Source: Candidatus Heimdallarchaeota archaeon B3_Heim (GTDB lineage: Archaea; Asgardarchaeota; Heimdallarchaeia; Hodarchaeales; Hodarchaeaceae). Taken from it: 32,000 nucleotides of DNA. Location of the stretch: the NCBI GenBank assembly GCA_003144275.1, contig NJBF01000005.1, positions 92,319-124,318 on the forward strand, given 5' to 3'. The translations under genes were made by a program, and so were the position numbers. The notes beneath the pieces were generated by a model, which worked only from the letters and a program-made list of their open reading frames with translations, was not told where the DNA came from and searched no databases. How positions within the stretch are numbered: the first letter of the stretch is position 1; each line of letters begins with the position of its first letter. Positions 13,356 through 18,645 of this stretch are shown piece by piece.

Positions 13356-16300
13356 TTAATACGTACTATCTGCTAAAACAATTTGAGGCTTTATTGTCAG
13401 AGCCATTAATTCCTGCAACAGCAATTTAAAAGCATAAGATATTGCAATCTTATAAATCCCAGTATCTACATTTCCACAAATACTGCAATAAGTTTGATCC
13501 TTTTTACGATCCCAAGTAGCGATGACACCACAGGTCTCACATATAAAGATCTCTGTTTTATCAGACTCCTCAAGTAATCGTTCTTTTAATAATAATGCCG
13601 CTCCGTGCCCAATCAAACAATCACGTTCCATTTCTCCAAATCTAAGCCCTCCTTCTCGCGCGCGTCCCTCTGTAGGCTGACGAGTGAGGATTTGAATGGG
13701 ACCACGTGCCCGTGCATGAATCTTATCAGAAACTAGATGATGTAACTTCTGATAATAAGTTGGTCCGATGAAAATTCGTGAGGGAAGTTTCTGTCCTGTC
13801 ATACCATCATACATAACAGATTCTGCGTATGGATGAAATCCTAATTTTCGTAATCTATCTCCAATATCTTCTGGATCTGGGGATTCAAATAGGGTGGCAT
13901 CAATTTGATTTCCTTCGTAACAAGCAACAATCGCACTCATACATTCAATAATTTGCCCAACAGTCATACGACTTGGAATGGCATGTGGATTAATAATTAA
14001 ATCTGGTACAATACCTTCTTCTGTAAAGGGCATATCACTCTGTGGAACAACATTTCCAATTATTCCTTTTTGACCGTGACGCGATGCAAATTTGTCACCT
14101 AATTCAGGTACTCGTTGATCACGAACTTTAATTTTGACAAGCGTACTTCCTTCAGAAGTTTCCGTTAATATTACAGAATCCACAATACCTTTCTCTCCAT
14201 GACGAATAGCAAGACTTGTCTCTCTTCGCTGGGGAGTGGCCGACTCAAATGAATCAAGTTCTATATATTCTTCTAAGAATCGTGGTCTGGAAGTTCGCCC
14301 AACTAAAATATCTCCTCCTCCAACTTCTATTTCAGGTTCAATGATTCCATCTACCTCACTTAAATGACGATAGACTTCTTTTGCACGATATCCTCTGACA
14401 CCCTTCTGTGGGATTTCAAACCTGTCTTCTTGTCCCCCTAAATATTTCTTCTCCTCACCCACATAAGAACGGAAGAAATGACTACGTGCTAGTCCTCTTT
14501 GGACACTGGCACGATTTAGAATAATTGCATCTTCAATATTATAACCTTGAAAACTAAGAATAGCCACTATAAAATTCTGTCCAGCAGGTCGATCGTTGAA
14601 CCCAATAACTTCCATAGGTTTACTACCAACTAAAGGAATTTGGGGAGCTTGTAAGATATGAGCACGACGATCTGTTCGGAAATAGAAGTTTGAAGCATAT
14701 AATCCTAGAGCTTGCTTTGTCATTCCCGCTTCATATGTATTACGGGGAGATTGATTATGTTCTGCATAAGGAATGATTGAAGCACATATACCTAAAATTG
14801 CTGATGGAGAAATTTCTACATGAGTATGATTAGATTCGATATCATCTAACGTCATGGCAATATAAGAATTTTCTTCTTCCTCTGCATCAAGGAATTCAAG
14901 TACACCTTCTCTTAACAAATCTGAAAACTTAATATCTCCCTTCCTTAACTTCTCAATGTGGCCCATTTTCAGTCTTGGAACTGAGGGTTGATCAGATTTT
15001 TCAGAAGGATCAAGGATAATAAGTGGTCTACGTACACGTCCTTCATCTGTATTGATTGAAATAACATGATTTTCCTCGAAATAAGCAAGATTGATTTCAT
15101 GATATAGTTTATTAGTTCTTCTAGCATTCCTAATTATTGTAAAAGTTTCAAGTGGATCTCTAGTAGTACCAATAAGATTTCCGTTTAATAAAATCTGAAC
15201 ACCTTGATGATCAATGGCTTCAGCAACTGGAATAGATTTACAATTTTGATAGATAAATTCTTTAACTGGTTCGTCAGGTGTACCGATTGAAATATACGCT
15301 TGCATCGCGAGATTTTTCACTAGTCCACAATTGGGACCTTCTGGTGTTTCATTAGGACATATCTTACCCCAATGAGTGGCATGTAAATCTCGAGCCTCAA
15401 AGTGAGCCTGACTTCGGATAAGAGGGCTAATAACTCGCCTAAGATGACTGTAGGTAGACATGTAATTAGTACGATCTAATAATTGTGACACTCCAGCTTT
15501 CCCACCTACCCAATTACCTGTCGCGAGAGCATGCCGAATTCGTTCAGTAATAACATCGGCTCTCATGGCTACACGTAAATTGGGCAATTTACCTCTTCTC
15601 GCGCCTTTTTCCAGTTGATACTTAATATCACGATATAGGGAATGGAAGGCAACGCGGAAGAGACTTGTTAACATTTCACCAGCAAGTTTTAATCGTTTAT
15701 TCGCATAATGATCTTTATCATCAGCTTCAATCCTTTTTAAATTTAGTTTAATTACTTTTAGCGCCATTTGAGCAAGATAAAGTGCTTTTTGTTTTCGGTA
15801 ACTAGCATTCTTGCCTACGTGCGGTAGGAGATAATTATCTAACACCTGTTTAGCTCGTAGAATTCGATATTGGCGAGTTTGTCCCACGGCAACTCGTTTA
15901 CCAATAAAATCTAACGCTTCTTCCTGATCTACAATTTCTGCAGCTTCTCGTAATGTAGGTAATAACTCCTGAATTAGCTCAGGATCATTACTGACTAAAT
16001 TAGCGATATCTCTATCTATTGTAACCCCCAATGCCTTGATTAAGACAGCTAAAGGAAGAGGTCTTGGAACACTGAAGAAATTTACAAGTAATCGTCCATC
16101 CTTCCTTCTCTGAACAGATACCAAGGATCGAAAACCTGCTACGGTGCTGAATACTTTAGCTACCGCGGTTGTAGAAGATCCTTTCCTTCCTTCATCAACT
16201 AATACACGATTTGAAACTAAATATTCTTGAGTTACAATTACTCTTTCTGATCCATTAATTATGAAATAACCACCAGGATCTTCAGGATCTTCTCCTAATC

Positions 16301-16727
16301 GTGTAAGTTCGTCAGTGGATAGGTTGTGTAATAAACAAGAATTTGATTTTAACATAATTGGTAATCTACCAATGTATGCAACAATAACTTCCTCCTCCTT
16401 CTCAATTCCTGCATCGACATATACAGGTCGCATTTTCAGATTCAAAGGAGCTGAATAAATTAAATTTCTCACTCGTGCTTCCATGGGAAATATGGTTCGT
16501 TCAGAACCGTCAGCTTCCCTCACAGAAGGCTCTCCAACTTCAATTCCCTCCAGTTTTACATAAAACCCTTCAATATCCGGTTCAATCTTGGGTCTTTCCT
16601 GAACTATTTCATTCAGTTTCTTTTCGACGAATTCATTGAAGGAGAAAAGATGTTGCCTTACTAATCCAAATTCATTATACATGGATTTAAGGACTTCCCA
16701 CTTATCATCATTAGTCAATTGTTCCAC
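13356..16727 (-). CDS. rpoB: RNA polymerase subunit B (Rpo2), unsplit
   Basis: GGYFIINGSERV, CPNETPEGPNCGLVKN, GDKFASRHGQKG, NPHAIPSRMT, GGLRFGEMERD, C-terminal zinc ribbon; 1123 aa. Confidence 0.99.
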   Translation of the reverse strand: MEQLTNDDKWEVLKSMYNEFGLVRQHLFSFNEFVEKKLNEIVQERPKIEPDIEGFYVKLEGIEVGEPSVREADGSERTIFPMEARVRNLIYSAPLNLKMRPVYVDAGIEKEEEVIVAYIGRLPIMLKSNSCLLHNLSTDELTRLGEDPEDPGGYFIINGSERVIVTQEYLVSNRVLVDEGRKGSSTTAVAKVFSTVAGFRSLVSVQRRKDGRLLVNFFSVPRPLPLAVLIKALGVTIDRDIANLVSNDPELIQELLPTLREAAEIVDQEEALDFIGKRVAVGQTRQYRILRAKQVLDNYLLPHVGKNASYRKQKALYLAQMALKVIKLNLKRIEADDKDHYANKRLKLAGEMLTSLFRVAFHSLYRDIKYQLEKGARRGKLPNLRVAMRADVITERIRHALATGNWVGGKAGVSQLLDRTNYMSTYSHLRRVISPLIRSQAHFEARDLHATHWGKICPNETPEGPNCGLVKNLAMQAYISIGTPDEPVKEFIYQNCKSIPVAEAIDHQGVQILLNGNLIGTTRDPLETFTIIRNARRTNKLYHEINLAYFEENHVISINTDEGRVRRPLIILDPSEKSDQPSVPRLKMGHIEKLRKGDIKFSDLLREGVLEFLDAEEEENSYIAMTLDDIESNHTHVEISPSAILGICASIIPYAEHNQSPRNTYEAGMTKQALGLYASNFYFRTDRRAHILQAPQIPLVGSKPMEVIGFNDRPAGQNFIVAILSFQGYNIEDAIILNRASVQRGLARSHFFRSYVGEEKKYLGGQEDRFEIPQKGVRGYRAKEVYRHLSEVDGIIEPEIEVGGGDILVGRTSRPRFLEEYIELDSFESATPQRRETSLAIRHGEKGIVDSVILTETSEGSTLVKIKVRDQRVPELGDKFASRHGQKGIIGNVVPQSDMPFTEEGIVPDLIINPHAIPSRMTVGQIIECMSAIVACYEGNQIDATLFESPDPEDIGDRLRKLGFHPYAESVMYDGMTGQKLPSRIFIGPTYYQKLHHLVSDKIHARARGPIQILTRQPTEGRAREGGLRFGEMERDCLIGHGAALLLKERLLEESDKTEIFICETCGVIATWDRKKDQTYCSICGNVDTGIYKIAISYAFKLLLQELMALTIKPQIVLADSTY

Positions 16728-16959
16728 GAGATAGACCTCTTCTAGTCTTCGTTTGAGTTTATTCTAGGGAAAAACTGGATAAGCATAGAGAATTGTATAA
16801 ATCAACGTCATATTCAATAAAACACATAGCTCAAACCTCAATGGTCATATCTTCTTGGGAAAGCTACTTGATGCTGATTTTTAATGATAACTTTTCATAT
16901 CATTTGCAGGGCTTATCAACGAAGGCAGATACACCAACTTAGCTGTGAATTTATATCTG

Positions 16960-17074
16960 ATGACTAAAGTTATCAGCCAACTCTTTTAAAAGAATTCTGG
17001 ACAAGAGGAGTCACACATCCTCTATCGGGCAGACCAGATACATTGGAAGGTACACTACCAGTTGGGACTACTTG
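16960..17074 (-). ncRNA. Putative TnpB omegaRNA scaffold (3' portion), outer element
   Basis: Overlaps the tnpB 3' end and runs to the TCAT terminus; homologous to the inner copy. Confidence 0.45.
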
Positions 17075-17194
17075 GGAATCAATAGTTACACTTTGAAGAA
17101 TATAACGAAAGGCATTGTGATCGGTGTTTAGACAAAAACCGCAACCCTGACAGCAGAAGGAACCACGCAATTTTCGATTCTGTTTTTTCACATG
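16973..17194 (-). pseudogene. tnpB: tnpB fragment 2 (second zinc knuckle, RuvC-III, C-terminal tail)
   Basis: HVKKQNRKLRGSFCCQGCGFCLNTDHNAFRYIL...GLPDRGCVTPLV*; joins fragment 1 in frame (TGT GGT|CAT GTG). Confidence 0.85.
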
Positions 17195-17549
17195 ATCATT
17201 TTTGTCCGACAAAGCAATATTTCTCGTATTCGCTGACCTCTCTCTCACACAACCTTAAAAGGACTCCCTCCCTTACTTCTTCAACCCCGAGGTGATGACT
17301 AAAATATTTCCTTCGCGCCCAGGGTCTATTCCCTTGTAACTACGTTAGACGAGTTACCCGTCAAAGGCAAGAGAGTTATGGCCCAACCTGGTTGAAATTC
17401 ACTAGTGTTTGAGATGTCGCAGTAAGATCTGATTCAAGTAGTCCCAATGGAGGCATACATTCTCTTGTTGCTAACCTGCCGGATAGCGGATGTGTGACTC
17501 ATCCTGTCCAGAACTATTTTCCAAATAGTTGTCTGACAAATCTAGTCAG
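17194..17549 (+). mobile_element. Non-autonomous IS200/IS605 derivative (PATE/MITE-like, 356 bp) inserted antisense into the tnpB remnant
   Basis: Removing it restores the tnpB frame with no target duplication (1-bp boundary ambiguity). Subterminal palindromes TTTGTCCGACAAA (left) and TTGTCTGACAA (right); ends in TCAG; last 115 nt homologous to the outer right end. Confidence 0.72.
17435..17549 (+). ncRNA. Putative TnpB omegaRNA scaffold (3' portion), inner element
   Basis: 115-nt homology to 16960-17074 (minus strand) with hairpins preserved; by established TnpB biology the omegaRNA derives from the element's right end. Confidence 0.5.
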
Positions 17550-17550
17550 G

Positions 17551-17637
17551 ACCACACTTACTACATTGTTAGGAGGTATATGCTTCGTTAACACGCACTA
17601 CAGTAATCCCAACGAGTTTAGCTTTATACTCAAGCAT
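17551..17637 (-). pseudogene. tnpB: tnpB fragment 1 (RuvC-II-distal helix, xNExYTS motif, first zinc knuckle)
   Basis: Manual translation MLEYKAKLVGITVVRVNEAYTS*QCSKCG, a typical TnpB LEYKA/VNEAYTSQxCSxCG segment with one in-frame stop. Confidence 0.88.
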
Positions 17638-17748
17638 TTTGCCTCAACAATCACAATATTCTAATTTCTGCTGAAAAATCAACTTAGTGAAATAATAATG
17701 ATCTATCTTTATCTGTAAATTTGTGGAAATGAAGGAAAGTATCTTTAA

Positions 17749-18645
17749 ATGAGTATAATTGTTGAATATCTTTTACAAGCTTTATTTTGGGGCGTTATTT
17801 TCAATTTTCCCTTATTATTCATAATTATCAAAATAAAATTACTCACCATGCCAGGAGGTATTCTAACAGGGGCAACTATTGCTATTATGACTTATATTAT
17901 TTCACCATTTCTTTGGTGCGCTTTATTAGCGTTTTTTCTAACATCCTCACTAATTTCAAAACAGAGCACACCTCAGAAACAGATGATTATAGCTGAATTT
18001 TCAAAAGATTCCACACGTGATGCCATTCAAGTGCTATCAAATAGCCTTCCAGCTTTATTTTTCGGAATCATATTTTTATCGATTGATTTCTTTCCATTCA
18101 TTGAAAATTCTGGTAATTTTTCCTTTTTATCTGTTTCTCCATTGATATATGCAGCATTTGCGTCACTGGCAACGCATAATTCCGATACATGGATGACTGA
18201 AATAGGAATCAGCACATCAAGTATACCCAGGCTTATAACTAATCTTAAGAAAGAAGTACCAAAAGGTACAAGTGGAGGAGTGACACTTAAAGGCACAAGT
18301 GCCGGAATAGTAGGTTCTATGATTATATCATTTATATACTTATTACAATTATTACTTCATTCTGATATATCACTTATTCATATGATAGTTCAGTTCATTT
18401 TCTTAACTTTCGCAGGTACATTAGGTGGTCTTATTGACTCTTTTGAAGGGGCCACGATCCAAGGATTATATTATTGTGAACACTGTCAGAAAGTAACTGA
18501 AAGGCAAATTCATAGATGTGGAAATAAAACAAATTTTTTCAAGGGATATCGTTTAGTGACAAATGACCTTGTGAATATCAGTTCTGCACTATTCAGCGGA
18601 ATTATCGCTCTAATTGGATTCTCAATAATTGAGGGAATTTTCTAG
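17749..18645 (+). CDS. DUF92 / TMEM19 family membrane protein
   Basis: RDAIQVLSN, SDTWMTEIG, PRLIT...GTSGGVT..G, DSFEGATIQ, CEHC..HRCG, NDLVN. Confidence 0.92.
   Translation: MSIIVEYLLQALFWGVIFNFPLLFIIIKIKLLTMPGGILTGATIAIMTYIISPFLWCALLAFFLTSSLISKQSTPQKQMIIAEFSKDSTRDAIQVLSNSLPALFFGIIFLSIDFFPFIENSGNFSFLSVSPLIYAAFASLATHNSDTWMTEIGISTSSIPRLITNLKKEVPKGTSGGVTLKGTSAGIVGSMIISFIYLLQLLLHSDISLIHMIVQFIFLTFAGTLGGLIDSFEGATIQGLYYCEHCQKVTERQIHRCGNKTNFFKGYRLVTNDLVNISSALFSGIIALIGFSIIEGIF

Follow-up and report, generated by a model that had tools for sequence, protein, structure and literature searches.

ISDra2 carries a Y1 TnpA, has asymmetric hairpin ends and inserts at TTGAT with no target duplication, and the IS630 elements target CTAG and duplicate its TA. 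In haloarchaea, IS1341-type (tnpB-only) elements and PATEs have been described (Dyall-Smith et al. 2011, PMC3119063), the elements lacking terminal inverted repeats and bearing near-terminal palindromes of the same sequence. Solo TnpBs moved in trans, as well as TnpBs that reside within DDE (IS630-family) transposons with symmetrical ends, were reported by Altae-Tran et al. 2023 (PMC10691335).

The Asgard family that we describe here has in common with the haloarchaeal IS1341-type elements and PATEs a tnpB-only parent, gene-less derivatives that arose by internal deletion and retain the 3' end of tnpB, mini versions reduced to the termini (here fusions of the left and right ends, 33 bp long), the insertion of element into element, and mobility without a usable TnpA. 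Unlike the PATEs, it possesses true 22-bp inverted repeats, a dyad-symmetric target core and AT at both sides. With the elements of PMC10691335 it shares a TnpB enclosed by symmetrical ends and situated <250 bp from the right end, and its 4-nt target, palindromic and with a central dinucleotide in common, is reminiscent of IS630; unlike IS630 elements, the core is AT (in CATG) rather than TA, and no IS630-type DDE, Cas1 or other transposase was found with the ends. The likeness to ISDra2 TnpB and its omegaRNA (PDB 8EXA, 8H1J) lies in the protein family and in a predicted structured RNA region that stretches over the tnpB 3' end to the right end, and the guide would, as in ISDra2, be provided by the flank past the right end. 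As TnpB elements go, this family is a moderately unusual one.

The window (the whole stretch of 32,000 nucleotides that was analysed; C88:92319-124318) comes from an assembly of 3.95 Mb (94% complete), hereafter the source genome. It was compared with a sister genome (G013) and with other genomes of the genus (G020, G018, G003 and G012), the genomes compared being 84-94% complete. The locus lies between rpoB and a divergent membrane-protein ORF (Table 1), and what it records is a nested insertion of an ordinary kind, into a pseudogene. In our account, which we hold with a probability of roughly 85%, a truncated tnpB IS received a MITE of its own family through symmetric integration at a Y-AT-R site by a non-HUH enzyme.

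Table 1. Coordinates of the features at the locus (positions within the window), followed by the filled/empty pairs informative for the junctions.
Feature	Position	Strand	Details
rpoB	13356..16727	-	context; start 16727 lies 234 bp downstream of the remnant right end (16962)
Remnant IS right end	16959..16982	-	junction AGT-CATC; last C matches the uninterrupted site in G020
tnpB remnant piece 2	16973..17194	-	second CxxC knuckle, RuvC-III Asp (LNTDHNA), C-terminus
Left junction CATG	17191..17194	+	C from target, AT shared, G is the element's first base
MITE proper, 354 bp	17194..17547	+	G-ATCA...TAGT-C; orientation opposite to remnant
MITE left terminal inverted repeat	17194..17215	+	22 bp
MITE central block, nearly invariant	17332..17382	+	tnpB coding scrap just past RuvC-I motif (IS positions 762-816)
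MITE right-end module	17433..17547	+	homologous to tnpB 3' end and right end (predicted omegaRNA scaffold region)
MITE right terminal inverted repeat	17526..17547	+	covarying hairpin just before
Right junction CAGG	17547..17550	+	family consensus CATG; one post-insertion substitution
tnpB remnant piece 1	17551..17637	-	29 codons; RuvC-II Glu (NEAYTS), first CxxC knuckle, in-frame TAA 17569-17571
Remnant 5' truncation junction	17635..17641	-	IS position ~1100 of 1424; microhomology AAAATGC common to IS and ancestral flank
Membrane-protein ORF	17749..18645	+	divergent flanking gene
Informative pair: window remnant			target CATC; filled right junction CATC
Informative pair: MITE at C44:7889			target TATG; left TATG, right CATG
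Informative pair: full IS on C69			target TATA; right CATA; 30-bp flank deletion on left
Informative pair: full IS in G013:C69			target CATA; left CATG, right CATA
Informative pair: MITE in G013:C31			outer bases T, G agree; empty site AA where AT expected

The remnant (window 16962-17637, minus strand) comprises the final ~321 bp of a 1.42-kb IS whose sole product is TnpB. An earlier note, made from the letters of this DNA, had recognised it as a hidden tnpB in two minus-strand pieces, and its description held up in the comparison with homologues: the translations are as claimed and the joined peptide matches TnpB paralogues, both zinc knuckles and the RuvC-III Asp are restored in the TnpB alignment, the in-frame TAA is where it was said to be, the ORF track does mis-start the second piece (ORF 16973-17248), and the right end, placed about 230 bp from rpoB, lies ~234 bp from it (16962 to 16727). 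When compared with six loci of the same genome, the joined pieces (X at the TAA) gave identities of 62-69% over residues 1-101 (best E 5e-40), in an alignment to TnpB homologues that runs gap-free over the junction (the homologues examined have zero extra residues between CG and the next residue at that point); piece 2 searched alone gave a weak match (E 0.018). Intact ORFs of 417-437 aa were present at five of these six loci, and a full-length paralogue matched the Pfam families PF07282 (Cas12f1-like_TNB, 3e-24) and PF01385 (OrfB_IS605, 3e-17), as well as TnpB and Cas12f structures in the PDB (ISDra2 TnpB, 5e-9). Close relatives of this TnpB are confined to MAGs labelled Candidatus Hodarchaeota or Heimdallarchaeota, which marks the source genome as that of an Asgard archaeon. 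The catalytic triad of the remnant is incomplete (E and the last D are present; the RuvC-I Asp and everything before it are gone), and with its truncation, TAA and insert the remnant is a pseudogene.

In G020, G018 and G003 the locus is free of the remnant and has ~50 bp of intergenic DNA in its place, and comparison with these relatives allows one to trace how the remnant came about. Past the right junction (AGT-CATC) the sequence is identical to G020; on the other side, the first ~1.1 kb of the IS is missing together with ~50 bp of left flank, and the AAAATGC found at the deletion break is present in the flank as well as in a subset of IS copies. We infer that a tnpB-only IS (1.42 kb, 22-bp inverted-repeat ends) would have inserted at CATC in the intergenic region upstream of rpoB, and that one later deletion, at the AAAATGC microhomology, would have taken IS positions 1 to ~1100 and ~50 bp of the left flank. 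The 354-bp MITE would then have landed in the remaining stub, at CATG and in the opposite orientation, in an insertion that would be recent or still polymorphic. Loss of flank adjacent to the left end was observed in two cases, at the full IS C69:9356 (30 bp) and at the window remnant near 17638 (~50 bp), and suggests that adjacent deletions at the left ends of family members are recurrent.

The 356 inserted bases consist of the 354-bp MITE and the dinucleotide 17548-17549 (AG here, AT in the family consensus). The insert has the attributes of a MITE, as it is short, ORF-free, delimited by inverted repeats, multicopy and subject to insertion polymorphism (filled/empty pairs). The source genome harbours 18 full-length and ~30 partial copies (67-88% identity), and a search of 21 further genomes from the genus detected the family in 7, against 0 of the 19 genomes searched from the class's other genera. 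The ends are sharp (summarised as CATGA..TTTGTCNGACAA), and in the aligned copies the tips, in tnpB sense, read CATG-ATCATTTTTGTCCGACAA on the left and TTGTCTGACAAATTTAGT-CATG on the right. The same tips delimit the full IS (1411-1424 bp, 22-bp imperfect inverted repeats), in which TnpB is the only gene and, from the alignment, looks catalytically intact; the assembly search proposed in the earlier note recovered five such full copies with intact TnpB ORFs. From the IS the MITE retains the left end, some of the left interior, a coding scrap of 37-50 nt (IS 762-816) and the final ~115 nt (IS 1303-1420), and the scrap and several other blocks are near-invariant across otherwise divergent copies. 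When reverse-complemented, the right end of the remnant itself matches the right-end module of the window MITE at 76% identity. Judged by these shared parts, we take the 354-bp insert to be a protein-less, internally deleted derivative of the same IS family as the remnant.

Smaller and more symmetrical variants of the family were also encountered. Three 33-bp solo units in the source genome (C8:64499-64531, C35:1462-1494 and C50:11147-11179) consist of the outer halves of the left and right ends fused at a shared TTGTCNGACAA core, and look like repeat-mediated core deletions (cf. the haloarchaeal 52-bp PATEs) or minimal mobile units. In the sister genome, one full IS (L169, G013:C69:5445-6856) has perfectly symmetric tips, with CATG-ACTAAA at both ends (i.e. 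its left tip is of the right-end type).

The earlier note had predicted that the 356 bp could be removed precisely, and natural alleles joined exactly in this manner do exist. At this locus G013 (96-97% identity) has the remnant and its TAA, and lacks the 356 bp base for base, the empty site reading GTGG-T-CATG-TGAAAA. Metagenome runs were compared as contigs, and the empty allele was present in contigs of three runs from three studies, in which exactly 356 bases are skipped (17193->17550; one of these contigs is 2,991 nt long); in a fourth run, a contig bridges the filled right junction. The environmental contigs that match the locus originate from marine-sediment and cold-seep metagenomes. 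The existence of the empty alleles as DNA refutes the idea that the 356 bp belong to the gene, as an intron or as native sequence, an idea that the structured nature of the stretch and its position inside a reading frame might suggest. The stretch is moreover missing from all intact homologues (none of which, as the earlier note had asked, carries it as coding DNA), its ~18 full copies sit in flanks that are unrelated to each other and mostly non-genic, its inverted-repeat ends are common to the insert and the IS, and it matches no Rfam family (a scan of 16000-18500 at E<=1 returned only a chance-level DUF805b match); we consider the probability of this idea to be practically nil.

Insertion differences between the source genome and G013 run in both directions. 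Two MITEs, and two more elements, are filled in G013 and empty in the source genome; in the opposite direction, a MITE and a full IS occupy sites in the source genome that are empty in G013, and two loci (L171 and L172) are filled in both; the family has been recently active in both genomes. Such two-way differences are what ongoing insertion predicts, and they weigh against the possibility that the MITE predates the split of the two genomes and that G013 lost it by precise excision. That possibility draws on the distance of the window MITE from its nearest copies (88% identity in the source genome, 94% anywhere), considering that the locus itself differs by only 3-4% between the genomes; against this, the source copies of the window MITE may be unassembled. 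No third genome with the remnant was found to polarise gain versus loss (G020, G018 and G003 are without it), and we deem excision in G013 a conceivable but less likely origin of the difference.

The family occupies Y-AT-R sites, CATG in most cases, and AT flanks its copies at both sides. In the window, the empty site holds a single CATG and the filled site holds CATG at one junction and CAGG at the other. With one CATG when empty and one per end when filled, the absence of a duplication is not shown, and a 2-bp (AT) duplication or crossover accounts for the junctions at least as well; hence, of the precise and duplication-free insertion claimed in the earlier note, the precision stands and the lack of duplication is left unsupported. 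We gathered filled/empty pairs between the source genome and its relatives to see which bases get copied. The canonical pairs (L118 and L096) show CATG in the empty site and at both junctions, except for TCTG at the left of L096, and are uninformative as to the copied bases. In all five non-canonical pairs (Table 1; targets in tnpB sense, except for the G013:C31 empty site, which as printed reads C-TT-A where CATA is expected) the outermost base of each junction derives from the target, and the inner one (G on the left, C on the right) derives from the element.

Two candidate layouts were rejected on these pairs: a 4-bp CATG target duplication is ruled out by the five of them, and the classical IS200/IS605 arrangement (whole target on the left, the element's own motif on the right) fails in three. 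The junctions fit an element G-ATCA...TAGT-C that shares or duplicates the central AT. We stress that the same sequence would result whether 2 bp were duplicated, a crossover took place over 2 bp or an HUH-type enzyme cut after CAT, so that the three are inseparable at this level. The left end of L096, L168 and C85 are exceptions to the junction rule, for which a later substitution is required. The C85 locus had also been considered as a filled/empty pair with G013, and was dropped on account of 1.2 kb of unrelated DNA at the site.

Among the family ends of the source genome (n=78), the outermost base is C in 36, T in 3 and G in 1 on the left, and C in 34 and T in 4 on the right. With C or T prevailing at both ends, the core target is a dyad, Y-AT-R; taken with the inverted repeats, which extend to the tips, it speaks for a symmetric double-strand reaction. 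The AT at both ends likewise points to such a reaction (a 2-bp staggered cut or a 2-bp crossover) and not to HUH chemistry. The base just outside CATG is asymmetric (read from outer to inner, A or C on the left, with T in 1/40, and T in 19/38 on the right), which couples the orientation of the element to the target. TAM selection by TnpB, differing contacts made by the two slightly different tips, or a strand-specific step could account for this.

It is this flank asymmetry that keeps an HUH variant alive, in which the insert would be an IS200/IS605-type PATE moved as a single strand by a Y1 enzyme, with YAT as target, an element ending in CAT and no duplication. A cut after CAT is compatible with five of five informative junctions, the exact removal and the natural empty alleles agree with it, the parent IS carries tnpB (usually associated with IS200/IS605), and haloarchaeal tnpB-only elements and PATEs are mobile where TnpA is scarce (PMC3119063). 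What speaks against it is, to begin with, the gene content: no match to the Y1 transposase (PF01797) was obtained in the source genome (94% complete), G013 or G020, and within the genus Y1 genes are represented by a copy in G018, which is broken and lies beside an unrelated tnpB without family ends, and by a partial match in G012. The ends are no more accommodating, as the 22-bp inverted repeats run to the tips, the palindrome stem that the two ends share is just 5 bp, and there is no same-strand pair of subterminal hairpins as found in IS200/IS605 (the covarying hairpin occurs at the right end only). Furthermore, ~89% of copies have a G after the insertion point, mirroring the C that precedes it, a symmetry not expected from HUH targeting, and the classical CATG arrangement does not hold in the three pairs mentioned above. 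The earlier note had taken the exact removability of the insert as the signature of HUH (TnpA Y1) transposition; the 22-bp inverted repeats, the dyad-symmetric Y-AT-R target and the lack of a Y1 gene in the source and sister genomes leave this attribution unsupported, and we consider movement by a Y1 enzyme unlikely.

Returning to symmetric integration by a non-HUH enzyme, the genomes were searched for candidates. No Cas1 gene and no IS630-type DDE (DDE_3, PF13358) were found in the source genome (the family core being AT in CATG), and its four resident DDE IS families have ends unrelated to those of the MITE and IS. An IS607-like 2-bp crossover, at a dinucleotide common to ends and target, would yield the observed junctions exactly. 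Unlike IS607, which pairs a serine-recombinase TnpA with TnpB, the source genome has a sole resolvase gene that is Hin-like (N-terminal catalytic domain), adjoins a reverse transcriptase and is not linked to family elements or their ends, and no MerR-like TnpA was present beside tnpB. The locus of this resolvase (L014, C2:5629-7439) encodes a 416-aa reverse transcriptase (YADD motif) convergent with the 183-aa Hin-like serine recombinase; it may represent a retron-like or other RT-based module, and is unrelated to the insert.

In six genomes the family ends delimit only units of ~0.35 kb and ~1.4 kb, the larger of which encode TnpB alone, and no parent element encoding a transposase for these ends was found there. 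Unpaired family ends in the source genome had no non-TnpB ORF family associated with them. The exact left-end pattern recovered one short metagenome contig (without a transposase), and neither end pattern matched in viral contigs. As for circles or tandem right-end/left-end junctions, the assembly yielded one partial look-alike only, at a divergent copy on C82 (C82:62590-62620), where a MITE right end abuts a 10-nt resemblance of the left tip (ATCAAATTTG); it may have been left by a tandem or nested insertion, or have arisen by chance. The source genome also holds a second TnpB family (six copies, ~426 aa, with an N-terminal HTH_OrfB_IS605 domain; e.g., L138 at C38:57987-59267), the ~1.65-kb units of which have ends that differ from those of the MITE/IS family. 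With Y1, IS607-type, IS630-type and Cas1 genes all missing from the source genome and G013, it is conceivable, though rather improbable in our view, that the elements are moved by an undescribed enzyme or through a TnpB-dependent route, with the (A/C)CATG flank acting as the TnpB TAM.

For the right-end region, 23 copies from four genomes were aligned and folded. The tnpB sense gives the more stable consensus fold (-39.0 kcal/mol, against -23.3 on the opposite strand) and has more local pairs (47 against 25), and one-sided pair changes give G-U rather than A-C in a ratio of 30:13. Compensatory changes, seen in few pairs overall, include some within the hairpin of the right end, and no Rfam family matches. 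The putative structured region, in tnpB sense, overlaps the tnpB 3' end and extends to the right end, a position that, like the sense-strand bias, fits the retention by the MITE of a putative omegaRNA scaffold of TnpB. In the window, such a scaffold would read out of 17547 into 17551 and onward, antisense to remnant piece 1.

The locus upstream of rpoB is itself of small consequence (a dead gene and a MITE), and the conserved ~230 bp before rpoB are intact. The present analysis contributes, for this locus, empty alleles from a sister genome and from metagenomes and a reconstruction of the remnant's history, along with the flank asymmetry and a junction rule resolved to single bases. How tnpB-only (IS1341-type) elements that lack a transposase of their own are mobilised has been an open question since the haloarchaeal surveys. 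Here, the locus and the sister genome offer clean filled and empty alleles, which together with the junction rule narrow the possible chemistry, and for this Asgard family the rule argues against the default assumption of an IS200/IS605 mechanism.
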